Part shown: positions 12,716-30,842 of the stretch, one piece after another | Numbering within the stretch: position 1 is the first letter of the stretch | Layout: each line of letters starts with the position of its first letter | DNA from: Phycisphaerales bacterium | GTDB taxonomy: Bacteria > Planctomycetota > Phycisphaerae > WQYP01 | Direction of reading: 5' to 3' | Length of the DNA: 64,000 nt | Assembly (NCBI GenBank): GCA_027451365.1 | Contig: DAIDJN010000011.1 | Coordinates: forward strand, 1 to 64,000 | Translations under genes and position numbers: made by a program | Notes under the pieces: model-generated | Databases searched by the model: none | Seen by the model: the letters and a program-made list of their open reading frames with translations, nothing else | Told to the model about the DNA's origin: nothing

Positions 12716-12788
12716 GCCCCCATCGTCTAGAGGCCTAGGACGGCAGATTCTCAGTCTGCATACACCGGTTCGAATCCGGTTGGGGGTA
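12716..12788 (+). tRNA. tRNA-Glu (CTC)
   Basis: GCCCCCA/TGGGGGT acceptor stem, anticodon arm GCAGA-TTCTCAG-TCTGC, GGTTCGAATCC T-arm; CCA not encoded. Confidence 0.95.
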
Positions 12789-13879: not shown

Positions 13880-14977
13880 TTAACCGCCGCCATATGGCGA
13901 TACATATACATTACTGAAATCAGACGGGGTCACCGCCGCGGCATGGCCATCCACAAATCCAACGTTAATGTGATTTCCATGGCGGTCAAAACCCAGGCCT
14001 ATGTTGGTATCGCCAGTGGGCAGCGGAAGCGCCGCGGGCGCCATGGGAATGCGGTCGCGAAGCGCGCCGTCATCGGCCACGGCCCGCAATGTGCACAGAT
14101 TTACTGTCGCGGGCAGTCCTGCGCCGGTATCAAACGCGGTGGTGTAATAGGTTTCGTCACAATAAAACAGACCATTGCTGCCCTGGGCATCCAGGCCACC
14201 CGGATTCGGCCGCACGCCGCAGTCTGCAAACATCAGCGTTTTTGTCGGCATAGGAATTCCGGTCAGACGACACCCCCACGGCGCGGTAAGCCCGGATGCC
14301 GCAACCGGCCCGGCGGCAATCTGGAAACCCCAACCCGGATTAAACGCGCCATAAGAACCGTTGTATTTAGCCGAGGCGATATCGGCATTGATTCCGTACG
14401 AAACCGGATAATAGCCTTGAAAATAGCCTGGATAACCGGCGGGCGTCGGTTCATTTGTACTGCCCGATCCGCTGCCAACCTGCAGGTTGTTAAACAACTG
14501 ATAACCGGGATATTGATCCGCCAGTGTTGGATCGCTGGGACACAGGAAAACCTTGGAACCTGCCCCATTATTTCCAAAATTCATAAAGCTCTGGTCGTTC
14601 TGGCCGCCCAGAAACGGCACCAGCGCACTGGCCCAGTCATTAAGCACCGCCCCGCCGGTGTTCACATATTGTCTGGTGACGGGGTTGTACCACTGATAGC
14701 GGTAAGAAAAAGTGGTGTGGTCGGCATCCGGCGTCAGGGTGTATTGCATAATACTCGAATCGGTATCCGGCTGAATAAAGCCGTTATGCTGCTGCGAAAA
14801 TTCCACCTCCGCAAGAACAATCTGCCGCACATTGGACAGACAGACGGTGGAACTCGCTTCCTTTCGCGCCGCGGCCAGAGCCGGCAGAAGGAGGGCGATC
14901 AGCAATGCGATAATGCTGATCACCACCAGAAGTTCGATAAGGGTAAATCCTTCTCTGTGTGAAACATGCTTAAACAT
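13880..14977 (-). CDS. DUF1559-type prepilin N-terminal cleavage/methylation protein with H-X9-DG motif
   Basis: [43 protein letters not shown] and [15 protein letters not shown]. Confidence 0.92.
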
Positions 14978-15004
14978 GGGATAGCCTCCTTACAGGTCTT
15001 AAAA

Positions 15005-18000
15005 TCAGACTGTTCGGCGAAATTTCGAGCGGCCCGGCAATACCAATGGAACGAGTCCCAGCAGCAGAATGCCGATCGCCGCCGGTTCGGGTACCGCCAC
15101 GGAAAGTGATGTTGCCGGATATTGCGCCAGCAAAGCGTCATAGGCCTGCATTGTCTGGCTGCTGGCACCAACAGATGCAAGCTTTGCGCCAAAATCAAGC
15201 AGGTCGCTACGGCCAATCAGCCCGTCGTGGTCAAAGTCCGCGGCGGGATTAAACAACGAATTGTTGCTGGCCATCAGGCTGGAAAAAGCCTGCACATCCG
15301 CCACGTTGTACTGCCCGTCAAAATTCAAATCTCCAAGGCCTGCGCCATATATTGTGGAGGTATAAAGCCCGGCGAAACGCTGAATATTATAGGTGCCATC
15401 GGGCTTGTACGTGACCACCGTGGCAACATGGTTGCCGCTGGTCAGGCCTGTTTCATTGATAACCCATAAATTGGTATCGCTTTGCGAAGCCTGGTTGGCA
15501 TTGCCCACCATCGCAAGCACTTGGGCATTGGTGTCCGCCGCGGGCAGGTCCCACAGGACATGAATATTGTTCGCAAGGCCATCAACGGATTTCACGACCA
15601 GTGACCGATTCTGATTCACGCCTGGCGTAATCGGATTAAAACTTTGAATGCTGGAAACCGGTGCGGAGGTGTCCACGTATATGGTTTGAGTCCAGTCGGT
15701 GTATACAGGGGGCCCGCCGCCAGGCCTGGCGCGAAACGCGATGGCTTCCAGATAATGATAACCCTGTGAAAAATCAGCAGTGTTAATGGTTTCAGAATAC
15801 AAACCCGTCCCTCCACCCACCAGCGGGCTGGAGCTTTCAAACGGAATATAACCATAGGCCGTTGTGTTAGGCACCGTGCTGACAAAAGTCTGGCCGTTAA
15901 GTTGCACGCCTCCGTCGATTTTTAGTATGGCATTATCGCCGCCGGCGTTATAGTCAAACAGGCTGGAATTTCCCAACAGATAGACCTTCTGGGTCTGCAA
16001 GTTAACCTGAAACTGGGCCGCCTTGATTACCGCAATGGTGCTGACGGTATTATTTCCGTTATCAAAAGTGATATTCGGGTCGTTGGCGGCGGGGGCATTG
16101 CCCCCCATCTGCCCAGCTACATTGGTCAGAGTAAGCGTGCCAATGGGTGTGGGTGGCGCGTAAATCAGATATCCCTGACCATTGGAATTGTTGTTGGGAA
16201 ACGTCACATTTACAGTGCTGTCCGAATTTACGGTCAGCACCTGTGGCAATCCATTCTTCGCCGCATTACCGGTAACTTCAACCAGATAGGGGACATTGTA
16301 TGCATTAAAGTTCGTCTGCAGCGTGGCATTCAGGTTGCCGCCGCCGGTCTGGTTGTTCAAAAGTACCAGCGCTGAATCACTGCGTTCAAAGGCGAAATTA
16401 TTCTGTGACAGGTAACGCTGCACATAATTTCCGTAGGCAAAACGGTTGCGCAAATCCACCAGACCGGAAACCTGATTGTCCAGCGTTTCAGTCATGGTGC
16501 CGCTAGCGGGGTTGTAAATGTTCTGCGAATTATTAGCCAGTGCGTTGCCGTAAACACCGCCCAGGGCGTCCCCACGGCCATTTTGTGGAAAGCTCTGTGT
16601 GCCGTTATCAAACGCGGTGGTGTTGCCGTTGTAATACACAATGGCCTGCCCCGGCATCATCAGTGTATAGGCGTAGGCGACGTTGCTAAGATATGGCGCG
16701 CCGTTGTCCTGGCTTTGAACAAATTTAACTCCGATAAGTCCATCGTGGGGCGTGGCATCATAAGAATCCAGAGCGGCGTTGACCACGTTATACCAGTTGT
16801 TGGTATAGCCATTGCCGGTCAGGTTGCTCTGCATCGCAAAAAACAGCGGGAAATCCAGCGCATCCCGGTTGGGCTGCACGGTGCCATTGTTACCATAATC
16901 CACCAGCGAGCCGTCCGCGTTCAGGCCGCTTTTCTGAATGACCTGCACGGTGGAATCCTGAAAGGCGTTTGATGCGCCGGGAATATTGGAGTCGTAATAT
17001 TCAGAAAAAGCGGATATCGGTTCCTGAACACCGTTGAGATATGTGCGCGAGGAGGCCCGGTAAACGGCTTGATCAAAATATGGCAGCGCGACCTGCCATT
17101 CCATGTTCTTGACCGCATCTAAACGGAAGCCATCCACACCCAGCGATTGCACAAACCACTGCAGGTTGCGCATCATGTAACCGGTCACATTTTCCGTGGT
17201 GGGCGAACCGGCAGCCGCATTTGCCGTATTAAATGAATTAATCTGAATATTTCCCTGGCCGGTCAGTGGGTTGTAAACAAAAATCGGATTGTTATTCAAT
17301 TGCGGATAAAACTGCTGATTCATCGGCATCGGGTCATTGGCCAGGCGGCCGAAGGCCGGCGTTGTGCCAGCGGGAATGTTGGCAGTGTTGCCGGCAGTCG
17401 TTGGATTGCGAATGTACTGGTTGTTGGTTGTAAAATCTATGTTAATCAGGCCAGCCAGCCGCGCCTCTTCGGTATTGGAGGCATATGCGCTGTTGAAGTC
17501 ACCGTCAACTGCAGTTGGCGTCTGCACCACCATACCGGGATAGGCCCCCGCCTGCACAAAACCCGCAGTGGCTGAATTGGAAAACCCGTTATGGCCCATG
17601 GAATAATCAGTATAAAAATAGCCGCCCATCTGGTGCGTGGCGGCGATCAGATTTTCATAGCCTTGAAGTGTTCCATATGCGGTCGGATTATTCGCTGATC
17701 CCAAATCAAATCGATTGTATATGTCGTAACCAACCGAACTGTTGCCCGAATCGGCACGTGTGGGCGGCGGCGTAAGCAGTGAACCATAACCGGCTCCAAA
17801 CACGTCCGGCATGCGGTTGGTAATATTGACCCACCCGCCACCAAAATAGTCCAGCATTGCCGGCGGAGAAAACGCCCCATAATTCGCCGCCGCCGCGGGA
17901 CCGGGAATACTTGCGCTGCCACAAATGGCCAAGCCGGCTGCCAGAAGGATGGACCGCCCGGCATTCCGCCTGCGATGACTTGTATGACAAGATTGTGCTG

Positions 18001-18013
18001 CAACGCGATTCAT
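15005..18013 (-). CDS. Surface-anchored GH13 alpha-amylase-like protein with dockerin-like repeats and PEP-CTERM
   Basis: Signal peptide; SVGYDIYNRFDLG, DGFRLDAVKN, FSEYYD and FVQSQD GH13 regions. GDLNFDG..AD / ADFDHDG..SD dockerin-like pair, then VPEP + TM + basic tail. Confidence 0.85.
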   Translation of the reverse strand: MNRVAAQSCHTSHRRRNAGRSILLAAGLAICGSASIPGPAAAANYGAFSPPAMLDYFGGGWVNITNRMPDVFGAGYGSLLTPPPTRADSGNSSVGYDIYNRFDLGSANNPTAYGTLQGYENLIAATHQMGGYFYTDYSMGHNGFSNSATAGFVQAGAYPGMVVQTPTAVDGDFNSAYASNTEEARLAGLINIDFTTNNQYIRNPTTAGNTANIPAGTTPAFGRLANDPMPMNQQFYPQLNNNPIFVYNPLTGQGNIQINSFNTANAAAGSPTTENVTGYMMRNLQWFVQSLGVDGFRLDAVKNMEWQVALPYFDQAVYRASSRTYLNGVQEPISAFSEYYDSNIPGASNAFQDSTVQVIQKSGLNADGSLVDYGNNGTVQPNRDALDFPLFFAMQSNLTGNGYTNNWYNVVNAALDSYDATPHDGLIGVKFVQSQDNGAPYLSNVAYAYTLMMPGQAIVYYNGNTTAFDNGTQSFPQNGRGDALGGVYGNALANNSQNIYNPASGTMTETLDNQVSGLVDLRNRFAYGNYVQRYLSQNNFAFERSDSALVLLNNQTGGGNLNATLQTNFNAYNVPYLVEVTGNAAKNGLPQVLTVNSDSTVNVTFPNNNSNGQGYLIYAPPTPIGTLTLTNVAGQMGGNAPAANDPNITFDNGNNTVSTIAVIKAAQFQVNLQTQKVYLLGNSSLFDYNAGGDNAILKIDGGVQLNGQTFVSTVPNTTAYGYIPFESSSPLVGGGTGLYSETINTADFSQGYHYLEAIAFRARPGGGPPVYTDWTQTIYVDTSAPVSSIQSFNPITPGVNQNRSLVVKSVDGLANNIHVLWDLPAADTNAQVLAMVGNANQASQSDTNLWVINETGLTSGNHVATVVTYKPDGTYNIQRFAGLYTSTIYGAGLGDLNFDGQYNVADVQAFSSLMASNNSLFNPAADFDHDGLIGRSDLLDFGAKLASVGASSQTMQAYDALLAQYPATSLSVAVPEPAAIGILLLGLVPLVLPGRSKFRRTV

Positions 18014-18144
18014 CAGGAACCCTTCAATTGTTTTGTTCGGCATCGGCCTGCCGGCCGACTTATTTCCCGCCCTCCGCGGATAAGTTCAGTGTCTGCCTGT
18101 TAATGGCCGGAAACATCCGGCCCCATCTTGTCAGCGGCGAGGGG

Positions 18145-19146
18145 TCATGCACAGGCCGCGCCGCGGCGCAGACGCCGATCTCCACGGCCAACCAGCAGCC
18201 CACAGCTTGTGGCAACAGCCATCAGCAACAAAGCACCTGGTTCGGGCGTGGGATTCGGTTCGGTTATCTGCATACTGTTGAAATAATCATATTGCGATGC
18301 CAGACCCGCGTTATCGTTGTACACCATCAACTGATTAATGGGCAGGCCGTTAAGTCCGGTCAGGACGCCAGAATCAAATATCGCGCCTTGGGCGGAATTC
18401 TTCGGTGTCACAGTAACTTCAAAACTGGTGGCGCTTTTCAAACTGAAAGTTACCACAATACCGCTGCCATCATTCTGGCTGCTGCTGCCGTCATTGACTG
18501 ATTTAATTCCGGTACTGACCGAATTGGTGAAGCCCGGCTGGGCGGCCGTGTAACCACCGTAGCTGAAGGTGTAATAATTTCCACTGCCGGTTGCCGCAAC
18601 CTGGAATATGGGGGTCGCATAACCACTGGTGGCATTGTAGCTTTGCAGTTCAAAGCCCTCTTGACCAGGATTGCTCATAGCTCCGGTCACCATGCCAAGG
18701 CTAAATGAACTTGTGCCGCCGGCGGAAGCCGTCATGGGTGTAAATCCGCGATAGGCATAAGGAGCCGACGGATCAGACCCCGACCCGTTGTTTGCGTCAA
18801 TTCCCCAGGAAACGCCATTGGTATCAATTGTGGAAGCCGCAGTTGTGCCATAAATGTATTGCGAAGGCCCGGTGAAAAATCCCCAAGTGGCCGCCTGACC
18901 CACACCGGACCCGGAAGGCCCCTGATACCATGGCCCGAGACCGGCGACGCCGTTGCTCGATCCATTGCTTAAGGTGGGCCATGTTCCGGAAGGATAAGCG
19001 GATGTCGAGGCATTGTCGGACAGGCTCACAGCGCCTTGTACAGCGCTGTGAGCCATTAAAAATCCGACCAGTCCAGAAAGCGCTGCTGAAACCAGCGTGC
19101 GACGCCACAGATCCGATCTGGCGGAAACTTTCTGTTCAACCGTCAT
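18145..19146 (-). CDS. PEP-CTERM surface protein (paralog 3 of an uncharacterised family)
   Basis: Signal peptide; SDNAS..Y..W..NG..GLGPW..IDTNGVSWGIDAN; TPEP + TM + RRLRR. Start after GGAGAG. Confidence 0.85.
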   Translation of the reverse strand: MTVEQKVSARSDLWRRTLVSAALSGLVGFLMAHSAVQGAVSLSDNASTSAYPSGTWPTLSNGSSNGVAGLGPWYQGPSGSGVGQAATWGFFTGPSQYIYGTTAASTIDTNGVSWGIDANNGSGSDPSAPYAYRGFTPMTASAGGTSSFSLGMVTGAMSNPGQEGFELQSYNATSGYATPIFQVAATGSGNYYTFSYGGYTAAQPGFTNSVSTGIKSVNDGSSSQNDGSGIVVTFSLKSATSFEVTVTPKNSAQGAIFDSGVLTGLNGLPINQLMVYNDNAGLASQYDYFNSMQITEPNPTPEPGALLLMAVATSCGLLVGRGDRRLRRGAACA

Positions 19147-19219
19147 AACTTCTCTCCAGAACGAAAAAGAATCCACCCGAACCGGGGCGATTGACTGCCA
19201 ACGCATTTATTCGCGAACA

Positions 19220-20224
19220 TCAGGCCATCTTTCGGCGCCGAGCCAGCAGAAGAACCGCGCCGCTGATTCCGATAAGGGCCAACGATGCAGGTTCCGGCGT
19301 GGCGGTGGTTATTGCCAGCGAGTTAAACAGGCCATCCTGGTATGTGTTCTGATCAAAAAGATCTGCCCCGTTTATCGCGCCGGCGGCAAGCGTTCCATTG
19401 TAAGTGGCAAGCGTGGTTGGAGTGGCCCCTAAGCTGGTTAACGTAAGGGAGTAATTATTTCCCGCGCCAAGGGTGAAATTGGCCATCACGCCCGAATTCA
19501 GCTGCGCATCAGTTAATCCGCTGATCGAGGATGTGGTTACACCGTTGGCAGTAACGTTCGTTTCCAGAATATATGAACCTGCGGAAGCCGAACCGGTCTG
19601 ACCGTTATAGCCGACCAGATTACCGCTGGTGTTGTTCGTCGGGCTTCCCAATTCGTTGAAAGTCAGACTGAACAGCGAATTGGCGTCATTGTAATTGGTA
19701 GCCGATGTCTGGCCGCCATTGCCGGTGGTTACAGCCACGGTTCCCGCCGTAAGGGATGGAGCCGCCGATCCAAGCCCAAATCCGTACGCCGGCATACCGT
19801 TTGGCGGATATGAACCCACGCCCGAACTGGTAAGCGCCACACTGAAAGTCTGACCAACTGAAAGCGAGCCAGTAAAAGCACGATACAGATCCACTCGCGG
19901 CGTGGCCGTCGGTGATCCGCTGTTGGCATAGGTACCCCATGCGTCGGAACTGGTGGCGATAGAAACATTGTTGGTATTGAAATACGTTCCAGTGTAGGGC
20001 GGACCGCTGTTATTCTGAGTGGAAATGGTCCATGCGCCAAATCCCGATCCCGCGTTGGGAGGTGTCCCGCCATTGGGCCAGGTGGTGCCGGTGTAATTAC
20101 TCGCATTGTCGGCGGCATTCATTGCAGCGCTGGCCGGTGCAGCCAGGCAAAATGACACCCCGGCGGCAACCGCCATCGCGGACAAAGCCAGGATTCTGGG
20201 AGAATTGGAAAGGGAGCGTTTCAT
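19220..20224 (-). CDS. PEP-CTERM surface protein (paralog 2)
   Basis: Signal peptide; ADNASNY..WPNG..GSGFGAW..AWGTYAN; TPEP + TM + RRRK. Start after AAGGAG. Confidence 0.87.
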   Translation of the reverse strand: MKRSLSNSPRILALSAMAVAAGVSFCLAAPASAAMNAADNASNYTGTTWPNGGTPPNAGSGFGAWTISTQNNSGPPYTGTYFNTNNVSIATSSDAWGTYANSGSPTATPRVDLYRAFTGSLSVGQTFSVALTSSGVGSYPPNGMPAYGFGLGSAAPSLTAGTVAVTTGNGGQTSATNYNDANSLFSLTFNELGSPTNNTSGNLVGYNGQTGSASAGSYILETNVTANGVTTSSISGLTDAQLNSGVMANFTLGAGNNYSLTLTSLGATPTTLATYNGTLAAGAINGADLFDQNTYQDGLFNSLAITTATPEPASLALIGISGAVLLLARRRKMA

Positions 20225-20291
20225 GGTTTTCTCCTTCCGAGAAAAAAGGACAAAAAAAAATGACACGACGTTGACAAACGCCGTAAGTATT

Positions 20292-20320
20292 AGTTTAACC
20301 GGTTAAACACACTTTGTCAA
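20292..20320 (-). promoter_or_regulatory. Sigma70 promoter overlapped by a perfect 16-bp palindromic operator
   Basis: Minus strand TTGACA-N17-TAAACT; palindrome GTTTAACCGGTTAAAC at 20293-20308. Confidence 0.8.
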
Positions 20321-20648
20321 GTACCGCCTGATTTTTTCGTTTTCACATTGATCTGCAGTGGTCGCGCCATTTACTGAATTGCGACCCCTATTATTCCGGA
20401 GCAAGAATATTCCAAGCCCGCGAATATCTTTCATGCCGACACCGGAGAAAAACGCTTCCGAATTCCAAACCGCCAACGATATGGAGTCTTGCGGCTTGAA
20501 ACGCGTTCACCACAGCAAGCCGGCACTGCGGTCCGATTCAGGTCGGATTGCATATCCAAAAACCAAACTTGCCGCCATTTTGACACGATGTGAACCGCAA
20601 TTCATGCAAATTCAGACAAGCCCTGCCGGTGATGAGTCGCGACCTGTA

Positions 20649-21524
20649 TCATTCAGCGAGCCGCTTCCCAATCCTGCTTCGCAACGCCAAGCCGATTCCT
20701 CCAGCCAATGCGCCCGCCAGCAGCAGTCCAAAAGACGCAGGCACCGGCACGGCTGCGCCCGCCGGGGCGGTCAGAACGGGGCTATTAATGTAAAAGTTGT
20801 TCCCGTCACCCGAGCCAGCGTTCAGGTCTACCGCTTGAAATCCAGCAATACTTCCCGAAAATGTACCGGTGAGAGTGGTTGTTGTCGCAGACGATCCGAT
20901 TGGCGTAATTGCAAGCGAATAGGCCGTGGCGGAGGTGAGCGTGTACGTCAAATTCAGACCAAAGTAGGTAAATCCAACGCCCGTTGAGGCACCGGAAATG
21001 GTTGCGTCCGAATAGAAATAGTCGCTCGCGCCACCGTTGAAGCCGAAAGTCAGGATGCTGCTGCCCGTACTGGAAACCAACGTCACGTAATCTGAACCAA
21101 GTGTATCAACATCGCCGTTGTCAAAAGCGATGGAAAATGAGTCCCCAACCTGCATCGCCCCGGCCGAAAAAGTTCGCGAGGCAGTGGCTGATGCGCCACT
21201 ATTGGCGTAAAGCCCCCAGGATTTGCTCGGGGTGCCAGTGTCAATGTCGCTGGTATCGCCGGCGGGCAGCGAATTCCCGTTATCGTTTACGGTCGATGAC
21301 CCAATGAAAAAGCCGGAGCTGCTCGACCCGGTCAGGGTCCATGCCGAATAACCAGTGCCACCGGTGCTTCCGTTTGTCCAGCTTGTGTAATTGGAAGCAG
21401 CATCCGAAGCTATCACGCCGGCCTGACAACTGGCAGCACCGAGTAGTGCAGCCATCGCCGCCAGCGGCATCAATCGACCGGATAAGCCAGAAATTCCAAA
21501 CTGATTTACTAAGTTCTTGATCAT
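20649..21524 (-). CDS. PEP-CTERM-like (VPVPA variant) surface protein (paralog 1)
   Basis: Signal peptide; SDAASNY.SWTNG..GGTGYSAW..IDTGTPSKSWGLYAN; VPVPASFGLLL TM + basic tail. Confidence 0.83.
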   Translation of the reverse strand: MIKNLVNQFGISGLSGRLMPLAAMAALLGAASCQAGVIASDAASNYTSWTNGSTGGTGYSAWTLTGSSSSGFFIGSSTVNDNGNSLPAGDTSDIDTGTPSKSWGLYANSGASATASRTFSAGAMQVGDSFSIAFDNGDVDTLGSDYVTLVSSTGSSILTFGFNGGASDYFYSDATISGASTGVGFTYFGLNLTYTLTSATAYSLAITPIGSSATTTTLTGTFSGSIAGFQAVDLNAGSGDGNNFYINSPVLTAPAGAAVPVPASFGLLLAGALAGGIGLALRSRIGKRLAE

Positions 21525-21684
21525 AAAGAAGGTCTCCCTAAAAAGGTGTAAAAAAAACAGATATCATGAAATCCGCAGCGGCGAAAGAATTAATCCCTCA
21601 TCATCCGTGCAGGCTTCCAACCAATACTTCGGGGCGACAGGTCGTTCCAAATCGCTCCCGGCTTGCCGCCCGTTTCCGGCATTT

Positions 21685-21700
21685 AGTGAACCGGTTAATC
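21685..21700. promoter_or_regulatory. Putative LacI-family operator
   Basis: AGTGAACCGGTTAATC matches the core TnAACCGGTTnA. Confidence 0.6.
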
Positions 21701-21914
21701 GAGCGGGCAAAAAAAAACACTCTCGCAACATTCTGCCATCCGCATAGGCACCGGGCAGACATCACTCTGTTGAACGAATGGCAAGACTTCGCGCAAAACA
21801 CGTAAAATCAAGCTATTTTTCACTACTTCGCCACCGAATCAGCAACTAGCGACTCTTGGCTAACCAAATTCTCACCGCATCACCGGCAGGTGAAAACAGA
21901 ACCAGTTGCGAAGT

Positions 21915-21966
21915 AATATAAAACATAAAATCCACCTTGTCAAGGAAAAAATTGTACCGGTTCAAT
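21915..21966 (-). promoter_or_regulatory. Sigma70 promoter (left arm) with adjacent operator
   Basis: Minus strand TTGACA (21938-21943)-N17-TATATT (21915-21920); near-palindrome ATTGTACCGGTTCAAT at 21951-21966. Confidence 0.7.
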
Positions 21967-22076
21967 AATCTGCACCACCCGCATCCGATTGCCGCGGCAT
22001 TATGCGCCCTTCTAACATTTATCGACGGCGGCACTTTCCGAATCGCGATTTTTAAACGTAACCCTTATGCGACAGC

Positions 22077-22112
22077 TTGACATTGTTCAATCATATAGTA
22101 AACTGGTTAACA
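22077..22112 (+). promoter_or_regulatory. Sigma70 promoter of the lacI-family gene with overlapping operator
   Basis: TTGACA (22077-22082)-N16-TAAACT (22099-22104); operator-like AGTAAACTGGTTAACA at 22097-22112. Confidence 0.6.
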
Positions 22113-22373
22113 ATTGCTAACCGGACAGGTGGTCCGCACCGTCGCTACCCATTTCAGGTCGCGAAGGCTCTCCGGCATAACCATTGCCGGTTCAGCGATG
22201 CAGTGCTGCACTTTAGTTTGGCGAATGAAACGACATTCACTGAACCTGAAGTGTCCGCAAGCTTCCGCACTTTGCGGTATGTATATCGTTGTATTGGCAA
22301 CATGGGAATCCTTGCTGTGGCCGCAAAACCTAAAATTAGCAAACGGCCAGACCCGCCCGCTGGCGATCTGGCA

Positions 22374-23483
22374 ATGCACGATATTGATGCGGTTTCGCCG
22401 CGAAACGTAACCGTCCGTTTTGATGCCCCCCTGCCCGACGACAAACCCCTGGAAAAGGTGAATATTCGGGATGTGGCCCGCGAAGCTGGTGTTTCAGTCG
22501 CCACCGTTTCCATGGTGCTGAACGACAACCCGCGCATCAGTCGTGGCACACAGGTCCGTGTTCAGAAAATGATTGAACGCCTCGGTTATCGCCCCAACCG
22601 GCTTGCCCAGGGGCTTTCAAGCAAATACACGCAGGTGCTGGCCGTTATGCTGCCGCCGCTGCGTCACGCCCTGGCGGATGCCTATTTTGGTGAAATTATC
22701 AGCGGCATAGTTGATCGTGCCGGCAAGCTCGGCCATAAAATGATGATCGAACAGGCCAAACCACAATTCATAAAAGAAGGTAAACACCTTGAACTTTATG
22801 AACGTCGGTTCGTGGACGGTATCTTGTGCCTCGGCTTTAATGAAAAGCATACGTTCCTTGCGGACCTTGCCGGCCCGCAGTATCCCATGATTCTGGTGGA
22901 CAACCGATTTGGCGACCAATTACTGGATTGCGTCCATTGTGATTACCGCCTTGGTGCCGAACAGGCGATGAACTGCCTGCTGCAACTCGGCCACCGCACC
23001 ATCGGCATGATTTATGCCGCACCAGAAAGTCCCACTTCACGTGATGTGATGGACGTCTACAAAACCCGCCTGGTCGAGGCTGGCACCGCCCCCGCGGATT
23101 CCTGGATGGCCGATGGAATGTTTACCGATGAAGGTGGCGCCGCGGCCGCGCAGGAACTCATCACCCGGCATCCAAACATTACGGCGATCCTCTGCGGAAA
23201 TGACAAAATGGCGCTTGGCGCGATCCGCTCCCTTACGCTGCACGGATATCAGGTACCACGCGATGTTTCCATCATCGGCTTTGATGATCTGCAACATCTG
23301 GCGTTCAGCAATCCCAGCCTTACCACCGTCCATCTGCCGCTATACGAACTTGGTGTGCTGGCCTGCGAACGGCTGATCGAAAAAGTGCGCGGCAAAGTGG
23401 AACGGGTTGCCGAAGTGCTGCCCACCCATCTGGTGCTGCGCGAATCCACCAGTATGGCGAGGCGTCTGGCCGACGCGCGCTAA
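22374..23483 (+). CDS. LacI-family transcriptional regulator
   Basis: VNIRDVAREAGVSVATVSMVLN HTH, LGYRPNRLAQGL hinge and VPRDVSIIGFDD..PSLTTV. Start uncertain (22302, 22374 or a later GTG). Confidence 0.93.
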   Translation: MHDIDAVSPRNVTVRFDAPLPDDKPLEKVNIRDVAREAGVSVATVSMVLNDNPRISRGTQVRVQKMIERLGYRPNRLAQGLSSKYTQVLAVMLPPLRHALADAYFGEIISGIVDRAGKLGHKMMIEQAKPQFIKEGKHLELYERRFVDGILCLGFNEKHTFLADLAGPQYPMILVDNRFGDQLLDCVHCDYRLGAEQAMNCLLQLGHRTIGMIYAAPESPTSRDVMDVYKTRLVEAGTAPADSWMADGMFTDEGGAAAAQELITRHPNITAILCGNDKMALGAIRSLTLHGYQVPRDVSIIGFDDLQHLAFSNPSLTTVHLPLYELGVLACERLIEKVRGKVERVAEVLPTHLVLRESTSMARRLADAR

Positions 23484-23631
23484 GACAACCTGGCGAATTG
23501 CGGGCGGCAACGTTTATCGGGTTTGAGTTTTCACGACCGAATCCAATAATAGACTCACGACATACTTCATGATTGCTTTTGGCTTTTCACGGCACCAGCC
23601 AGCCGTAACTTTTTATTTGGAATAACATACC

Positions 23632-26286
23632 ATGTTGCCGATGATGACACCCCAACGATGCTGGCGATTCACGATCGCATCAGCCCTTCTGATTGCCGCT
23701 ATTCATGCAGGCGTGCTCGCATCCATATCAGCCAAAGCCGGCGCGGCACCGGTCACGGCCGCCGATCCGGTTGGCCATCTGGCAAAAATTGCCGCGAGGG
23801 TGGCCCATACCTTCCGCTATCAGGTACCGGCCAATTCACCGGCCCCTTCCCGCGTGAACCTAGCCGGAGATTTCAATAATTGGTCGCCCACCGCGACCCC
23901 CATGACGCCCGCAGGCGCCAAATCGCCCGGAGAATGGTCCGTGACAATCCGCCTTACACCGGGATTGCACCATTACAAATTTGTTCTTGATGGCAACCAC
24001 TGGATTCCTGATCCAGCCGCGGAACTGCGGTTTTCGCAAGAGGATGGCAATGGCGGCCAGAATTCTGGAATACGCATCCGGTCTGTCTGGCAGCGTATGC
24101 CCTCGCCAGCGCCCAATCTGGTGGCCATCCACAGGATCGCCTTTTCCACCCACTCCATTGATCAATGCGATGTGGTTACGCCAGATACGCTGCGTTTGAC
24201 ACTGCTGGCGCAGACCGGGTCGTTGACACATGTTGCCGCGCTCATAAAAGTAAACCGCCACAAGTGGAAAACAGTGCGGTTGTACTCGGAATCAATGGAT
24301 CGCGATGCGACATCATGGGGAAACATCGCACGTGTACGCGGACCCGAGGCGCGCTATTGCTTTTCGTTGACCAATGGCCGACAGACCCTGTTCCTGGCCG
24401 ACGGAGATTTTTACACCACGCCGATCGCGGCCGAGGCTCATGCCTACGCCATTGCCATGCGGCCCGCAGTGGTCACGCCCGGTTGGGCAAAAAGGGCGGT
24501 CTGGTATGAAATATTTCCCGAACGTTTTGCCAATGGCAGCAAGGCCAATGACCCCGCCCATCACATTCCGTGGCGCTGGTCATGGTTTAAACCGTATCAA
24601 CCGGCCGGCGAAAAAGGAAACTTCTATACTTATGTATACAATAGATTTTATGGTGGAGACATTCAGGGAATCAGCCAGAAACTCAACTATCTGCGAAAAC
24701 TGGGCGTTACGGCGCTCTATCTGACACCCATTTTTGAATCCCCGTCAATCCACAAATATGATCCATCAGATTTTCGCCATGTCGATGACGGCTTCGGCGT
24801 AAAAAATTCGATCGATTTGCTGAAGGGGGAAAAAATACGCGATCCCAAAACCTGGCAATGGTCCGCGTCCGATAAAATATTTCTGCACTTTATCCGTCAG
24901 GCCCACAAGCGGGGATTCAAAGTCATTATTGATGTCCCGTTCGGTCATTGCGGTGTTGGCTTCGGCCCATTTCAAAGTGTTTTAAAACTAGGGAAAAAAT
25001 CTCCCTATGCCGGCTGGTTTGACATTCTTAAATGGGGACCACCCGTCGTCTACCAGGGCTGGGGACAGGTCGGTGGCAATATGCCCATGTTTCGACATTA
25101 TCCCGGCAGCGGACTGGCACCCGGCTATTGCCGCTATCTGTTCGCCATTACACGGCGCTGGATGGCACCCAACGGAAAAGTCGCTGATGGCATTGATGGC
25201 TGGCGGCTGGACACCGCACCGGATGTTCCGCATTCATTCTGGATCGCCTGGCGAAAAGTGGTCAAAGCCATCAACCCTAAAGCCGTTATTATCGGCGAAA
25301 TATGGACGCCATCGCAGGCGTGGCTCAACCGTGGGAATCAGTTTGACGCCGTCATGAATTACCCGTTCGCGACACTCTGTACACAATTTTTCGCCGCCAA
25401 TCGGCGCGCCGGCGGCATTGGCATCGGGCCAAAGAGGTTCGGTGCTGCCCTGGCCAACATGCTAAACTGGTATCCGTGGCAGGTGGATTTAACCCAGCAG
25501 AATCTCATTGATAGCCACGATACTGATCGATTTGTCTCGCGGCTTGTCAACATGAATCTTCCATTTAATGCAGATGACCACCTCCAGAATGGCGACCATT
25601 ACAGCAGCGCCAAACCGACCGCCGAGGACTATACCCGTTTTAAACAGGTGGTGGCATTTCAGATGACGTTCCCCGGCGCGCCCATGGTCTGGTATGGCGA
25701 TGAGGTCGGTATGTGGGGTGCCACCGACCCGTCAGATCGCCAGCCGATGCTCTGGAAGAAGCTCATGCCCTACAACGACCCGCAACTGACCATCAACAGA
25801 TCGCTTCTGCATTTTTACCGCCGCGCCATCGCGGCCCGCCGACTGCTTCCGCCGCTGGAGATCGGTTCTTATGGCCAGCTTCTGGCGTTCGACCGCCGCG
25901 ACGTTTTCGCCTTTTTTCGCACCATCCGGCATCAGCACGTGTATGTAGTGCTGAACCGGAGCAGCCAGCGACGGATCGTCAATCTGCCCCTGTTTCCCGC
26001 GGACTGCAATCACCATTTATTCGATTATCTCTCGCAACTGGATTTTCACCTGAAAATGCCGGCACATCAAAAAGGGGGTGGCTGGACTCGGCCAGTTCTT
26101 ATCTTGCGCCATCGCGCAACCGGGAAGATCAGCCCCGGACCGGTTCTGACGTTGACGCTGAATCCGTGGCAAACCATGATTTTGGCCCGGAAGTCCGTTG
26201 AATCCACCACCGGCCTCCAGACTGCGAACAACACCGGCAAACCCTCGGCGGGTAACCATGTCATGGAGAGCCGATTGCAGAGATAG
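23632..26286 (+). CDS. Exported GH13 neopullulanase/cyclomaltodextrinase-like enzyme with N-terminal CBM48-like domain
   Basis: Signal peptide; LAGDFNNW..YKFVLDGNHWIPDP (CBM48/AMPK-like); WYEIFPERFANG, GGDIQG, DGWRLD, IGEIW, DSHD and YGDEVGM. Confidence 0.9.
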   Translation: MLPMMTPQRCWRFTIASALLIAAIHAGVLASISAKAGAAPVTAADPVGHLAKIAARVAHTFRYQVPANSPAPSRVNLAGDFNNWSPTATPMTPAGAKSPGEWSVTIRLTPGLHHYKFVLDGNHWIPDPAAELRFSQEDGNGGQNSGIRIRSVWQRMPSPAPNLVAIHRIAFSTHSIDQCDVVTPDTLRLTLLAQTGSLTHVAALIKVNRHKWKTVRLYSESMDRDATSWGNIARVRGPEARYCFSLTNGRQTLFLADGDFYTTPIAAEAHAYAIAMRPAVVTPGWAKRAVWYEIFPERFANGSKANDPAHHIPWRWSWFKPYQPAGEKGNFYTYVYNRFYGGDIQGISQKLNYLRKLGVTALYLTPIFESPSIHKYDPSDFRHVDDGFGVKNSIDLLKGEKIRDPKTWQWSASDKIFLHFIRQAHKRGFKVIIDVPFGHCGVGFGPFQSVLKLGKKSPYAGWFDILKWGPPVVYQGWGQVGGNMPMFRHYPGSGLAPGYCRYLFAITRRWMAPNGKVADGIDGWRLDTAPDVPHSFWIAWRKVVKAINPKAVIIGEIWTPSQAWLNRGNQFDAVMNYPFATLCTQFFAANRRAGGIGIGPKRFGAALANMLNWYPWQVDLTQQNLIDSHDTDRFVSRLVNMNLPFNADDHLQNGDHYSSAKPTAEDYTRFKQVVAFQMTFPGAPMVWYGDEVGMWGATDPSDRQPMLWKKLMPYNDPQLTINRSLLHFYRRAIAARRLLPPLEIGSYGQLLAFDRRDVFAFFRTIRHQHVYVVLNRSSQRRIVNLPLFPADCNHHLFDYLSQLDFHLKMPAHQKGGGWTRPVLILRHRATGKISPGPVLTLTLNPWQTMILARKSVESTTGLQTANNTGKPSAGNHVMESRLQR

Positions 26287-26380
26287 CGTTTATCGGCACA
26301 CCACTGAATTGATATGTGCGGCAAACCGTGGTTTGGTCTAAAATGAGCAGCCTTAAGTTTTAACTCTGGCCGGAGTTCTG

Positions 26381-28987
26381 GTGATGTCGCTCTCCAATCC
26401 GCTGCTGATCAAGCCGATTCTTACCTTAGGCATCGCGTTTCTGTTTTTTATGCTGATCGCCGCGGTCTGGCATTTGGCAAAAATTCTTGCCGGAAAGCTT
26501 TTCGCCCGGATTGGCGCTAACAAAAACAAAGCTCTTTCAGCCGGCGTGCTGCCCGCGGCCTGGCGGCGGTTCAGCCGTGGATGTTCGTGGACGCTGGTGA
26601 TCCTGACCATCGCGGTTGTCACTTGGTCGTTTTTTCGGGTCGGCATGGAGGCCCTTGGCGGATACAGGCAAGGCCGCTCCGTCATTACGCTGCGCATTCT
26701 GCATTGGGGATCTCCTTCGGAAGATCGCATAGTCCGCAGGCTGATTCAGAATTTTGAAGCCCACCACCCCCATGTGAGGGTTCAGGACATCAACGATTCC
26801 GGCGACTACCCGGCAAAACTCAAGACCATGTTCGCCGCCGGAGCGCCACCGGATCTGTTCTATATGCCGGGCAGCAGTTTTTTGCGATTGGCGCGCGACG
26901 GCCTTCTGCTTAATTTGACTCCGCTGATTGCCCGGCAGCGCGCGAAGGGACATTTTTTATGGCTGGGCGACATGTACCCGGCACTGCGCAAGGCTTATGA
27001 ATTCAATGGTCGTACAGTCGGGTCTGGAAATCTTTACGGGCTGCCAAAAGACTGCTCATCCATGGTGTTTTATGTGAATATAAATCTTTTCCACAGAGCA
27101 CATCTGCCCATCCCATGGCACGGGTGGACCTGGCATACTTTCCACCAGGACGCCCGAATCATCTCCAAATTGCCCGCCGATTCCAATGGTCCATTTTACG
27201 GGGCGGTTATCAACACCGCCCCGCTGGAATTTCAGAATATCATCTGGTCATTTGGCGGACATTTTTTTTATCATGCAAATTGCCGCCGACCCGCGTTGGA
27301 CTCGCCGGCCGCACAGGCCGCGATGAATTTGGTTTATACGATGCGTTTCAAGGATCACAGTGCGTTTAATGCCACAGGAATCGCGCATCACGGAAGCGAG
27401 GAATTCTATCGTGGTCAGGTTGGCGCCATTGGCCCGCAGGGACGCTGGACCACCGTTCCTTATCGGTACATTCGGAATTTTAAATGGGACGTTGTGCCCG
27501 TGCCCCACGGAGCCAGAAACATTTCCAGCATAACCACAGTGGCCTGGTCGATTGCGGCGGCCACCCACCATCCGCGCCATTCCGTGGAACTGCTACGCTT
27601 TCTATGCGGACCACGTGGCCAGTCGATTCAAGCCAAACTGGGCCTTTCCATTCCCTCCCTCGAATCCGTCGCACATTCCACGGCGTTTCTCGTTCCCGGC
27701 CAGATTCCGGCACACTCCCAGTTATTCCTGACCGCTCTGGCACATGGCAGATTGCCTCGAGCCTTTGCGCATCATGCGGAATTTCGCTCCATTCTTCAAC
27801 AGGAAATCACTGCCGCCCTTCGGCTGGGCATCAAGAGTCCGCTGGCCGCCGCGCATGCGATCACGCGGCGTTGGAAGGCGCTGCGGGACGCCTCACGGAA
27901 TCAATCAGATCATCCCCCGATGCCCTGGCGATTTCTGGCCATTGTCACCACCATGGCACTTGCACTGCCTCTTATTTGGTGGCTGTGGCGTATCCTGAGA
28001 ACCGATGCCAAATACGCGAGAAATAGAATCGGCGTGCTGTTTATCTCTCCCTGGCTGATAGGATTTTGCGCACTTACCGCCGGCCCCATGACCCTTTCCC
28101 TTTATCTTTCGCTCACCCACTGGACGGCCATTCAACCGCTGGCGGACGCCCGGTTCACCGGGCTGCGGAACTATCATGATATACTTCTGGCGGATCATAA
28201 TGTTTTTCACGCTTTGTGGCTGACCCTGCTGTACGTGGTCCTGTTAATTCCCCTTGGCCAAGGCCTGGGGCTGGCACTGGCCATTCTGGTCAATACGCGC
28301 ACCGCGGGCATTCGATTTTTCCGAACCGCCTTTTTTCTTCCATCTGTTGTCAGCGGTGTGGCCATGGCCACGCTTTGGCTTGGCATGTTCAATGCGGATT
28401 ACGGCCTGGTGAATGCGGTGCTTGCGCCGGTCCTCAATTTACCATCCAGTTTGCTTGGCTTTCTGGCCGGCCTGCCAGGGTTGCAGCAGCCATTCGCCTC
28501 ATGGTCCGCGGCGGTCCATGTGGCCCCGCCAGACTGGTTCGGCCTGGATGCACGCCATTGGGCGGTTCCCGGTTTTGTGCTGATGGGATTATGGGGCATT
28601 GGCAGTGCCATGATTATTTATCTGGCCGGCCTGAAGGCCATCCCCGAATCTTTTCACGAATCTGCCCGCGTGGATGGTGCCGGCGCATTTCGGCGCTTCT
28701 GGCACATTACACTTCCAATGCTTTCTCCTCTTGTTTTTTTCAATGTCGTCATGGCCATGATCGGCTCTTTCCAGATATTCACCCAGGTGCAGGTCATGAC
28801 CAACGGAGGCCCGGACAAGGCCACCAATTTCTACGTCCTTTATCTTTATCATCAGGCGTTTGAGTATTACCACATGGGCTACGCCTCGGCTCTGGCGTGG
28901 CTGTTGTTTGCACTTCTGCTGACACTGACACTTCTATTATTCAGAGTGTCGCGCCGCTGGATTTATTACGAGGCATTCCGCGAATGA
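26381..28987 (+). CDS. Fused sugar ABC solute-binding protein + MalF-like permease
   Basis: N-terminal TMs, then a family-1 SBP (KLKTMFAAGAPPDLF, YGLPKD, WDVVPVP), then a permease with FISPWLIGF and the EAA loop ESARVDGAG..FWHITLP. Confidence 0.88.
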   Translation: MMSLSNPLLIKPILTLGIAFLFFMLIAAVWHLAKILAGKLFARIGANKNKALSAGVLPAAWRRFSRGCSWTLVILTIAVVTWSFFRVGMEALGGYRQGRSVITLRILHWGSPSEDRIVRRLIQNFEAHHPHVRVQDINDSGDYPAKLKTMFAAGAPPDLFYMPGSSFLRLARDGLLLNLTPLIARQRAKGHFLWLGDMYPALRKAYEFNGRTVGSGNLYGLPKDCSSMVFYVNINLFHRAHLPIPWHGWTWHTFHQDARIISKLPADSNGPFYGAVINTAPLEFQNIIWSFGGHFFYHANCRRPALDSPAAQAAMNLVYTMRFKDHSAFNATGIAHHGSEEFYRGQVGAIGPQGRWTTVPYRYIRNFKWDVVPVPHGARNISSITTVAWSIAAATHHPRHSVELLRFLCGPRGQSIQAKLGLSIPSLESVAHSTAFLVPGQIPAHSQLFLTALAHGRLPRAFAHHAEFRSILQQEITAALRLGIKSPLAAAHAITRRWKALRDASRNQSDHPPMPWRFLAIVTTMALALPLIWWLWRILRTDAKYARNRIGVLFISPWLIGFCALTAGPMTLSLYLSLTHWTAIQPLADARFTGLRNYHDILLADHNVFHALWLTLLYVVLLIPLGQGLGLALAILVNTRTAGIRFFRTAFFLPSVVSGVAMATLWLGMFNADYGLVNAVLAPVLNLPSSLLGFLAGLPGLQQPFASWSAAVHVAPPDWFGLDARHWAVPGFVLMGLWGIGSAMIIYLAGLKAIPESFHESARVDGAGAFRRFWHITLPMLSPLVFFNVVMAMIGSFQIFTQVQVMTNGGPDKATNFYVLYLYHQAFEYYHMGYASALAWLLFALLLTLTLLLFRVSRRWIYYEAFRE

Positions 28988-29949
28988 CACAGCCAAGCCC
29001 AATGCCGAAGATCCAAAACGCCCCCGCCCCACCGGTGGGAGCCCGCGTTCGTCGGTTCGCCCGATGGCTTCTGGCCCCGTATACAGATCTGCTGGACCTT
29101 CTTCAATACCGGCACGAGCGCAAATATTCGCGCGCACGCATGGCCCTGATCGCCGGATTGCTGTTGCTGGCGGGTACCGCCTTTATAGCCCCGTGGCTTT
29201 TTATGCTAAGCGGCAGTCTAAAAAGCGAACAGGCCATGCAGGCAGGCGGATTCAATCTATTTCCCCGCAATCTGCATTTGATGAATTATCCGCGAGCGCT
29301 CGTCCGGATGCACTTTATCAATGCCCTGGCCAACACTATTTTCGTTACGACTCTTTGCGTCCTGGGCCAGGTCATATCCAGTTCGCTGGTCGGCTTCGGT
29401 TTTGCCCGCCATCGCTTCTTTGGAAAAAATACACTGTTTGTCATCATGCTTTCCACGCTGATGCTGCCCGCCCAGGTTACCATCATTCCCGTCTTTCTTT
29501 TGTTCCGATCGCTTGGCTGGATTAATACGTTTCTTCCCCTGATAATTCCCGCCTGGCTCGCGTCGCCATTTTTTGTGTTCATGTTCCGCCAGTTCTTTGC
29601 CCAGATTCCGGAAGAACTTATTGAGGCCGCCCGAATGGATGGCTGCTCGGAATGGACAATCTATCTAAGGCTCATGCTGCCCCTGTCTGCGCCGGTGATC
29701 GCCATTACCGCCATCTTCAGCTTTCTGGGCGCCTGGAACGATTATTTTTCTCCGCTGATTTATCTTGATTCTCCACGGCGCTACACGCTGGCTCTGGCAC
29801 TGGCTGGGTTCAACGGGCAATATGGCGTCACACATCCACAATATCTGCTGGCGGCAAGCTGCGTCACCATGCTTCCCTGCCTGGTTCTTTTCTTCGCCGC
29901 GCAGCGCTATTTCGTGGAAAGCCAGACTTTTACCGGAATCAAAGGCTGA
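28984..29949 (+). CDS. Carbohydrate ABC permease (MalG-like)
   Basis: IPEELIEAARMDGCS EAA motif and WNDYFSPL; ATGA overlap with the upstream stop. Confidence 0.92.
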   Translation: MTQPSPMPKIQNAPAPPVGARVRRFARWLLAPYTDLLDLLQYRHERKYSRARMALIAGLLLLAGTAFIAPWLFMLSGSLKSEQAMQAGGFNLFPRNLHLMNYPRALVRMHFINALANTIFVTTLCVLGQVISSSLVGFGFARHRFFGKNTLFVIMLSTLMLPAQVTIIPVFLLFRSLGWINTFLPLIIPAWLASPFFVFMFRQFFAQIPEELIEAARMDGCSEWTIYLRLMLPLSAPVIAITAIFSFLGAWNDYFSPLIYLDSPRRYTLALALAGFNGQYGVTHPQYLLAASCVTMLPCLVLFFAAQRYFVESQTFTGIKG

Positions 29950-30112: not shown

Positions 30113-30385
30113 ATGACACCTACGGAAGCGAAGTTGATCGACATTCTTACACAAGGCTTGAAATTGCGGCTGGACCCGGCGATTCCGGTCACTCCTAAAA
30201 CCGCTATTTTCGGCAAGGTCGACGGATTAGGACTTGATTCAGTGGATGTGCTGGAAGTGGCCGTCCTGATTGACAAACATTTTGGCGTGGTTCTTGAAGA
30301 CAACAATGACGATGTGCGCGCCGCGATGACCACAATCGGTTCGCTCGCCGGATATATCGATTCACATTCCGCCGCCCGCGGCTGA
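30113..30385 (+). CDS. Acyl carrier protein (aryl-polyene-type)
   Basis: IFG..DGLGLDSVDVLE phosphopantetheine site; small acidic protein. Confidence 0.85.
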   Translation: MTPTEAKLIDILTQGLKLRLDPAIPVTPKTAIFGKVDGLGLDSVDVLEVAVLIDKHFGVVLEDNNDDVRAAMTTIGSLAGYIDSHSAARG

Positions 30386-30398
30386 GGGTGCCTGCACG

Positions 30399-30842
30399 AT
30401 GCCTGCCAGTTCAATGGTTCCTGCTTTCCCGATGCTTTTGCGGCCATCCGGCGCAATTCTTTATCGGCTGCGGATGAAATCCGATACGGAATGGCAAACG
30501 GACGGCCGCATTTCCGCCGTGGCCGTTTTCGCCGCCAGTCACGCCGGCTTTCAGGGCCATTTTCCCGGCCGGCCTATTTTGCCGGGCTTTCTCCACATTC
30601 AACTTGCGCTTGATATATTACGTATTTTCGAACCCCAGGCGGAATTGACCGCCATTCTTTCCGCTAAATTTCATTATCCGATTTTGCCCGGGGCGGAAAT
30701 TCAGATCGACAATTGCCGCCAATTGTACAATCAGGCCATCGCCAAACTGCAAATCGGCGAGGAATTGGCTTCCAGCGTGGAATTTCAGTTTTACACGGGG
30801 TCTGCGCCTGTGCCCGCGGCCGTGGTCCTCCAGACATCATAA
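30399..30842 (+). CDS. FabA/FabZ-like hotdog dehydratase (ApeI-like)
   Basis: FQGHFPGRPILPG and KFHYPILPG motifs; true start may be further downstream. Confidence 0.75.
   Translation: MPASSMVPAFPMLLRPSGAILYRLRMKSDTEWQTDGRISAVAVFAASHAGFQGHFPGRPILPGFLHIQLALDILRIFEPQAELTAILSAKFHYPILPGAEIQIDNCRQLYNQAIAKLQIGEELASSVEFQFYTGSAPVPAAVVLQTS

Follow-up and report, generated by a model that had tools for sequence, protein, structure and literature searches.

The Sus system of Bacteroides thetaiotaomicron comprises SusC, SusD, SusE, SusF and SusG together with SusA, SusB and SusR, while maltose/maltodextrin ABC regulons couple MalEFGK with LamB and a LacI-type MalR. In the Planctomycetota, a 2024 survey describes the CAZyme clusters as not functionally characterized (PMC11131199). 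Dextran is reported, in the accessible part of one study, to bind pili-like fibres and to enter the periplasm energy-dependently in Planctopirus and Gemmata (PMC5394234), and a review speaks of such planctomycete fibres as "fishing rods" built from dedicated pilin-like proteins (PMC12078418). Type IV pilin-like proteins are likewise linked to glycan foraging in another PVC bacterium, through the MUL2 pilus locus of Akkermansia (PMC13174399, as far as the accessible text goes). PVC bacteria also encode large paralog sets of prepilins with class III signal peptides, designated DUF1559/SBP_bac_10 (PF07596) and H-X9-DG (TIGR04294), for which the literature searched held no assigned function. Our searches of the literature, supplements aside, found no prior description of an alpha-glucan locus bearing such a pilin.

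Here we describe a conserved alpha-glucan (starch/glycogen/dextran-type) utilization locus of the Phycisphaerae, predicted to be under LacI control. It lies in a window of 64,000 nucleotides, the whole stretch of DNA analyzed (contig DAIDJN010000011.1, positions 1 to 64,000), from the 93% complete genome of a Phycisphaerales bacterium (GCA_027451365.1; hereafter G000). A sequence-only reading had proposed the locus as a functional analogue of Sus; all nine genes were confirmed where that reading placed them, and its assignment to alpha-glucans is supported. The features are as follows.

13880..14977, minus strand: DUF1559/H-X9-DG-type prepilin, clade A (N_methyl and TIGR02532 profiles, motif, homologs, tree, model)
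15005..18043, minus strand: exported divergent GH13, alpha-amylase-like, with dockerin-like repeat and PEP-CTERM tail (profiles, catalytic residues)
18145..19146, minus strand: PEP-CTERM paralog 1, "ASDN" ConA-like module (start set by ribosome-binding site; longest ORF 18145-19206)
19220..20224, minus strand: PEP-CTERM paralog 2 (PF07589/TIGR02595 above cut-off; longest ORF extends to 20266)
20292..20320, minus strand: predicted sigma-70 promoter, strongest operator (20295-20306) over the -10
20649..21524, minus strand: paralog 3, PVP-variant tail, lineage-specific
21687..21698, no strand assigned: weaker operator-like palindrome in the paralog 3 leader (<9 bits with the relatives-trained matrix)
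21915..21964, minus strand: predicted leftward promoter (21943-21915) and adjacent weaker palindrome (21953-21964)
22077..22110, plus strand: predicted rightward promoter, palindrome 22099-22110 over the -10
22302..23483, plus strand: LacI-family repressor, presumed start (PF00356 and PF13377)
23632..26286, plus strand: exported CBM48-GH13 of neopullulanase/cyclomaltodextrinase type, without PEP-CTERM (N-terminal hydrophobic stretch)
26381..28987, plus strand: SBP_bac_1 fused to BPD_transp_1 (MalF-type permease)
28897..29949, plus strand: MalG-like permease (profile match; probable start at 28984, overlapping the upstream stop)

As in Sus, genes grouped under a predicted regulator encode an exported enzyme of alpha-amylase type, further exported proteins that lack catalytic function, a neopullulanase-type GH13 expected in the periplasm, and an alpha-glucosidase. 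Unlike Sus, the locus has no SusC, SusD or lipoprotein anchors; it has PEP-CTERM tails, a dedicated prepilin and an ABC importer, its repressor is of the LacI type, and its alpha-glucosidase is a GH31 rather than a GH97. Measured against a Sus-type polysaccharide utilization locus, it has co-located CAZymes and a regulator (two GH13 genes, LacI and a conserved operator, with regulation predicted) and no tandem SusC/SusD; a domain search of the locus, LamB included, agrees with the earlier statement that it holds no TonB receptor, SusD or maltoporin. The right arm resembles the maltodextrin regulons in its LacI repressor, family 1 solute-binding protein (SBP), MalF/MalG, orphan ATPase and neopullulanase-type GH13 (best solved-structure matches to alpha-amylase II/neopullulanase, E 5e-88), and differs from them in the fusion of SBP to permease, in having no LamB and in a presumed surface arm with a pilin. 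No ABC ATPase is encoded in the locus, and a single MalK-type gene is located elsewhere in G000, on contig C42. The best solved match of the SBP is an arabino-oligosaccharide-binding protein (E 1e-33), followed by Lmo0181; a maltodextrin specificity is tentatively assigned from gene context. Of the earlier proposal that a periplasmic GH13 and an ABC transporter complete import, the domains are indeed present, but the ABC arm is present in just 1/21 loci of the same family; the SBP::permease fusion is also found in 14 of 42 loci outside it. An SSF symporter as a replacement for the ABC arm is a weak candidate (3/21 loci, the G000 ortholog not among the operator hits).

The regulatory claim that the same palindrome occurs at promoters on both arms holds, with sites at 20295, 21687, 21953 and 22099. 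Seven strand matches to the pattern were counted where 0.3 were expected, an enrichment that is overstated because the pattern was derived from the sites themselves; independent support comes from relatives, where an operator site precedes the left arm in 18/20 loci and stands directly before the pilin gene in 6/20. When the scoring matrix was built solely from relatives, the operator at 20295-20306 scored highest genome-wide (31.3 bits; next, 16.6). Two of the palindromes, one per arm, lie over the -10 element of a TTGACA..TAAACT promoter, and that at 22099-22110 is likely a site of LacI autoregulation. As TTG 22077 belongs to the -35 of this promoter, it is doubtful as the start of the LacI ORF, and the true start is probably ATG 22302 or 22376. 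An unlinked GH31 gene of G000 also bears the operator, and GH31 lies inside the locus in 7/21 relatives. LacI orthologs share 64-82% identity within the family and 42-64% outside it, where operator-like sites were seen with a simple pattern in only ~10/37 distant intergenic regions, too few to indicate shared control there.

Among the exported proteins of the left arm, the GH13 matches PF00128 just above cut-off and keeps D309, E348 and D446, which we take to lie in the conserved GH13 catalytic regions, in 31/31 aligned rows (some loci counted twice). Its PEP-CTERM tail is weak (E 0.018). The exported proteins of the arm have the attributes of exosortase substrates, with a signal peptide at the N-terminus and a PEP motif, TM helix and basic tail at the C-terminus, and G000 encodes two exosortases. 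Paralogs 1 and 3 are PEP-CTERM proteins by motif only and are 29-37% identical to the middle paralog; paralog 3 ends in PVP, not PEP, and is truncated in a same-genus genome (G019), and relatives mostly carry two paralogs. All three had been read as starch-binding, an assignment that the evidence does not support. The paralogs are a generic lectin-fold (ConA-like) module that is not starch-specific (best Z 17.7, rmsd 2.7, 173 aligned): a GH13 fusion occurs in 3/72 long paralog homologs, and a further paralog adjoins a GH53 galactanase. No Pfam CBM was matched in the three, and their reading as a new starch CBM was rejected as unsupported.

The pilin is another matter. Its gene starts 27 bp downstream of the PEP-CTERM GH13 gene, and the pilin clade and GH13 occur in the identical 21 genomes of the 44 sampled from the family. 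Across the class, among 401 genomes searched, GH13 is also found in 60 of 65 genomes with the pilin clade (clade A was searched within Phycisphaerae only), and the pair lies within 12 kb in 57/60, which bears out the recurrence of gene neighborhoods that the earlier reading expected. A phylum-wide search for the GH13 at E<=1e-40 gave 3/401 genomes, all Phycisphaerae, and was insensitive, the query being long and few candidates having been scored. The genomes behind these counts are related and do not amount to independent observations. In the 42 loci outside the family, a pilin is present in 32/33 with a LacI ortholog and 0/9 without; the latter nine have GH13 with neither pilin nor LacI, and the enzyme can therefore be retained without the pilin. 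In pilin trees (a quick tree and FastTree), 30 pilins from the locus cluster on a single branch, separate from 39 G000 paralogs (SH-aLRT 100, quick tree; 98 after two long rows were dropped). The pilin is thus, as judged by phylogeny, a dedicated orthologous clade linked to an alpha-glucan substrate, as the claim of a substrate-specific pilin supposed. The clade also stays constant while the non-catalytic partner varies, from ASDN in the family to an unrelated domain in 25/42 outside loci, for which nothing useful matched in Pfam or PDB. Away from GH13, 4/11 pilin copies adjoin other alpha-glucan enzymes (GH13-X25, GH77, GH31 and CBM53+GH13), and 6/11 have no identified alpha-glucan enzyme or LacI ortholog nearby (two at contig ends). 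In two families the slot is taken by a pilin clade distinct from this one (10 loci). Within a protein family that has no assigned function in the literature searched, one subfamily is here tied to one substrate class, in at least four bacterial families.

The DUF1559 label itself is based on the H-X9-DG motif and on homologs. The locus pilin shares with DUF1559/H-X9-DG prepilins the motifs C-x-SN-x-RQ, CP-x-D, SY-x-N and H-X9-DG, the last near its C-terminus (H333-X9-D343-G344) with H333 and D343 invariant across 20 orthologs; PF07596 is found in 41/86 of its homologs and TIGR04294 in 28/84, and one ortholog (G439) exceeds the PF07596 cut-off. The protein itself, however, matches neither profile at E<=0.01, only PF07963 (N_methyl; 28.3 bits, cut-off 21.2) and TIGR02532 (26.1, cut-off 16.3). 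It has a class III prepilin cleavage/methylation motif, intact and with E5 invariant in 20 aligned orthologs. Its model (pLDDT 87) has a long N-terminal helix (13-63); fold searches gave matches to the pilin helix and to coiled coils alone, barely covering the globular part, in which they found no recognizable sugar-binding fold; we claim no new fold for it. Clade-specific residues are mostly polar rather than aromatic. In the ESM Atlas, matches were for the most part unnamed clusters. Minor pilins PilB and PilC of Streptococcus sanguinis similarly have a pilin scaffold that carries a sizeable additional domain, expected to bind a ligand; those serve adhesion in a monoderm and have known domains, whereas here an unclassified domain belongs to a catabolic regulon (PMC8179133, in its accessible part).

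The genome offers both machinery and a competing route. Exosortase and pilus genes, for which the earlier reading had called, are both present elsewhere in G000, the latter as two PilB/GspE-type ATPases, PilT, PilM, PilC, a prepilin peptidase and one secretin that serves all its pilins. A co-regulated TonB-dependent or LamB importer elsewhere, which could have accounted for uptake, was not matched: G000 gave no TonB receptor or plug (PF00593, PF07715; positive controls gave matches) and no LamB. TonB-receptor matches are likewise absent in 46/60 genomes with pilin and GH13 and present in 14/60. The Sus analogy is partly supported; it had left out an ordinary alternative, namely that two full OprB porins in G000 could let small hydrolysis products in with no pilus involved. 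The OprB genes have no operator, and no candidate outer-membrane channel under the operator was found in G000.

Because the same pilin accompanies starch enzymes in dozens of related genomes, we consider, with a probability of about one half, that the locus pilin may be the part of a common retractile type IV pilus that captures sugar specifically, acting in place of SusC/D. Counting against this are the OprB porins, the nine outside loci that keep GH13 alone, the six displaced copies lacking such neighbors, the other pilin clade in the same slot, the want of a recognizable sugar-binding fold together with the mostly polar clade-specific residues, and the TonB receptors in 14/60 genomes. LacI would repress both arms and the unlinked GH31 as long as no product of alpha-glucan breakdown is present. 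The exported GH13 would cut the polymer, helped by lectin-fold PEP-CTERM proteins that can be exchanged for others. After processing by PilD and assembly by PilB/PilC, the pilin would bind glucan, and PilT retraction would draw it to, and probably through, the secretin. CBM48-GH13 and GH31 would trim the chains in the periplasm, and SBP::MalF/MalG with the distant MalK would import them. The fibres of Planctopirus and Gemmata offer a parallel in alpha-glucan, fibres and energy-dependent periplasmic uptake; these genera are of another class, and the accessible part of that report leaves the fibre subunit unnamed (PMC5394234). MUL2 is one core pilus operon, so far as its accessible description goes (PMC13174399), whereas here the pilin is one of ~40 exchangeable ones inside a substrate-specific regulon.

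It is also conceivable, if improbable, that the pilin acts as a pseudopilin with its own clients, helping to secrete or display neighboring PEP-CTERM proteins through the secretin, with products entering by porins. The shared secretin and the OprB porins would suit such a role, as would some pilin/PEP-CTERM pairs with no glycosidase nearby; moreover, 20/36 other G000 pilins lie <=400 bp from a same-strand PEP-CTERM gene, compared with 1.2% of 2217 background genes. Yet the clade persists despite swapped partners and adjoins unrelated alpha-glucan enzymes, GH13 homologs, some PEP-CTERM-tailed, lack a local pilin, and ~72 PEP-CTERM genes stand against ~37 pilins. Equally unlikely is a modular pilin for adhesion only, tethering cells to starch or glycogen while sugars released by the surface GH13 diffuse through OprB-type porins. 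It explains the substrate linkage as well as a capture subunit does, OprB is at hand, modular pilins with sugar-binding modules are described as widespread (PMC8179133) and MUL2 as attachment-related (PMC13174399), both in the accessible parts of those papers. PilT, the operator-free OprB genes, and the periplasmic-type CBM48 neopullulanase and oligosaccharide ABC, whose presence would point to chains passing the outer membrane, speak against it. Least probable, and quite doubtful, is that the pilin stays in the inner membrane as a periplasmic binding or scaffold protein, PEP-CTERM enzymes acting in an enlarged periplasm that glucans enter by another channel: in the accessible parts of the sources, the PEP-CTERM destination is proposed, not demonstrated (PMC1569441), Akkermansia PEP-CTERM proteins are found in larger amounts in intracellular fractions than in those of the outer membrane (PMC4960237) and N_methyl+SBP_bac_10 proteins show a fractionation pattern unlike that of plain pilins (PMC8567305), but the cleavage motif with its invariant E5 is intact and no candidate channel is co-regulated.

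Beyond the capture role proposed for this pilin, we tentatively suggest, with somewhat less confidence, that polysaccharide import in the Phycisphaerae, and probably in PVC bacteria more widely, runs through one retractile type IV pilus/secretin machine to which dozens of interchangeable DUF1559 pilins, each specific for a nutrient, can be fitted. Such a machine would be the counterpart of SusC/D that works without TonB; the clade described here would be its alpha-glucan adaptor, and each pilin would be encoded with PEP-CTERM helpers in the locus of its substrate. How polysaccharides cross the outer membrane in Planctomycetota becomes a testable question with this locus, which specifies a single pilin, a single inexpensive class of substrate, and a single repressor with its operator. 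If true, the idea would explain what a very large family of paralogs does, and substrates would become predictable from pilin clades.

The nine genes of the locus, their strands and the 27-bp gap between the GH13 and pilin genes are as the sequence-only reading described them:

13880-14977 (-), pilin
15005-18043 (-), PEP-CTERM GH13 enzyme
within 18145-21524 (-), three ASDN paralogs
right arm (+), LacI
23632-26286 (+), CBM48-GH13 enzyme
26381-28987 (+), SBP::permease fusion
28897-29949 (+), MalG-like permease

Domain scans recovered a prepilin motif, a weak GH13 match, one formal PEP-CTERM match, LacI, CBM48-GH13, and an SBP_bac_1::BPD_transp_1 fusion with a second permease. The palindromes reported at promoters on both arms are indeed present, four of them from 20295 to 22110, and two, one on each arm, cover a predicted -10 element. 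The surrounding window holds a further PEP-CTERM glycosidase (6358-9084, +; GH16, 908 aa), a tRNA-Glu(CTC) gene (12716-12788) followed by 1.1 kb up to 13870 without a clear gene, in which a 154-base piece is 73% like positions 163403-163556 of host contig C41, and, directly past the locus (30113-31756), genes for an acyl carrier protein, a FabA/ApeI-like dehydratase and a lipid A-type acyltransferase.

Within the host's own family, the PEP-CTERM GH13 occurs in 21 of 44 genomes, and the pilin lies directly downstream of it in all 21 loci. At least two paralogs stand upstream in 19 of the 21, that is, everywhere the contig reaches, and the palindromic operator precedes the left arm in 18 of 20, a contig end accounting for one miss; in six loci, another operator copy sits immediately ahead of the pilin gene. 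The right arm is more variable across the 21 stretches fetched (LacI in 11, CBM48-GH13 in 8, GH31 in 7, ABC in 1). One genus (loci L017, L018, L019, L023, L024, L026 and L027) has the left arm and operator without an adjacent LacI. Of 401 genomes searched across the class Phycisphaerae, the GH13 was found in 87. For 42 of the 65 outside the family, the locus was examined, in 20-kb windows that truncate some of them, and these held LacI in 33, a pilin in 32, CBM48-GH13 in 29, an SBP in 17 and the full SBP-permease fusion in 14; a pilin occurred only together with LacI (0/9 where LacI was absent). From these counts, the two-arm layout first proposed for the window is therefore widespread in the class, and it looks to have been lost secondarily in most of the family. 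The locus is real and class-wide, with a predicted alpha-glucan function.

An operator matrix trained on relatives places its top site in the host genome at 20292 (31.3 bits versus 16.6 for the next). The same matrix also scores a site upstream of an unlinked, Tat-type GH31 gene (contig C76, 39593-42686), where TTGACA and the operator-like site both occur. This enzyme is 52% identical to its ortholog, the GH31 inside the locus of 7 relatives, and is likely part of the regulon. The relatives' in-locus GH31 matches PDB 5X7O over nearly the whole length (E 3.5e-172), an entry that we take to be a Paenibacillus alpha-1,6-glucosyltransferase; the match points to substrates that would include not only starch but also glucans with alpha-1,6 branches.

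Starch-specific binding by the three paralogs, as initially proposed, is not borne out. Their module is generic (2785 clusters at E<=0.001). It recurs in surface proteins of large size that bear Ig, PKD, HYR, PA14 or T9SS tails (51 of the 72 long proteins that were scanned), and only three of the 72 have it fused to GH13; the host carries three further copies, one of which neighbours both a GH53 galactanase and another pilin. Structure prediction (pLDDT 89) gives a sandwich of the concanavalin A type, whose best structural match has Z 17.7 and is followed by GH16 and lectin domains; sugar binding is plausible on this model. In most other families, the paralogs are replaced by a second exported domain of ~255 residues (L031:10813-13086 and 24 loci more), which forms tandem repeats, is fused to GH13 in locus L085 and has no match in the host genome.

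Neither PF07596 nor TIGR04294 matches the window pilin; the DUF1559 label is fair because the protein has the H-X9-DG motif and PF07596 is present in 41 of 86 homologs. A profile trained solely on sequence homologs gives the window pilin 389 bits versus 122 for the next host paralog and, at E<=1e-45, reaches 65 of the 401 genomes. The GH13 is present in 60 of these, within 5 kb in 51 and within 12 kb in 57 (distances for genomes G017 and G628 come from a second-best match, at a contig end). In quick, midpoint-rooted trees (one version without two long rows), 30 locus pilins form one branch holding none of 39 other host pilins; a separate branch unites ten pilins from two other families. Eleven copies lie away from this GH13: four adjoin other alpha-glucan enzymes, one a LacI ortholog and six neither. 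By these comparisons the pilin is dedicated to the alpha-glucan locus, and we think that it follows the substrate and not a client protein, mainly because its clade is constant while the non-catalytic partner changes between families. Kinship among the genomes inflates all of these counts.

DUF1559-type pilins number about 37-40 in the host, and PEP-CTERM genes about 72. A same-strand PEP-CTERM gene lies within 400 bp of 20 of 36 other pilins, versus a background of 1.2%; this pairing speaks for a role of the window pilin as an export adaptor, a role that we consider unlikely. Glycan-degrading enzymes occur among the nearest four neighbours (E<=1e-15) of 18 of 39 other pilins; for randomly drawn genes the figure is 3 of 20, and two of these three sit in pilin loci themselves. 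Type VI secretion genes on contigs C29 and C41 (L126, L129) were met in this control. Three pilins (C56:60448, C63:49312 and C26:115125) cluster closely in the tree (support 100). Two of them are surrounded by housekeeping genes, none has a PEP-CTERM partner, and all three are candidates for core or major subunits.

The exosortase and pilus machinery that the earlier proposal called for was found in the host genome (93% complete): two exosortases, a single secretin with PilM next to it, PilC, a prepilin peptidase, and two PilB/GspE-type ATPases flanking a PilT that bears its signature motif. One MalK-type ATPase is encoded. Searches of this genome for the TonB-receptor barrel, plug and LamB gave no match, the controls being detected; a TonB receptor likewise went unmatched in 46 of the 60 genomes with pilin and GH13, among them G633 and G754, each a single contig, and was matched in 14. 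Two full OprB porins, neither with an operator, are present, so small products may still diffuse inward. What the analysis establishes is the gene content and its conservation, the catalytic residues, the folds as predicted and the machinery; from these we infer that the locus is very likely induced by alpha-glucans. The GH13 would act at the cell surface, the pilin would bind glucan, and retraction would drive its entry; to this capture-and-import role we assign a probability of roughly 0.5. Adhesion alone seems to us as doubtful as export, and a periplasmic role is improbable.

The proposed analogy with Sus is supported in part: the layout is Sus-like and the host gave no TonB-receptor or LamB match, but starch specificity of the paralogs is not supported. 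The locus is not a member of Sus, yet it is built alike, with a dedicated pilin at the importer's place. We found no description of this locus, or of DUF1559 pilins tied to particular glycans, in the literature searched, which left subscription papers largely outside; the main text of PMC11131199 contains no DUF, SusC or TonB. Background came from PMC11685898, PMC8567305 and papers on dextran-binding fibres (PMC5394234), MUL2 (PMC13174399), "fishing rods" (PMC12078418), PEP-CTERM (PMC1569441), Akkermansia (PMC4960237) and modular pilins (PMC8179133). If pilus-mediated import is confirmed, the system would be categorically new.
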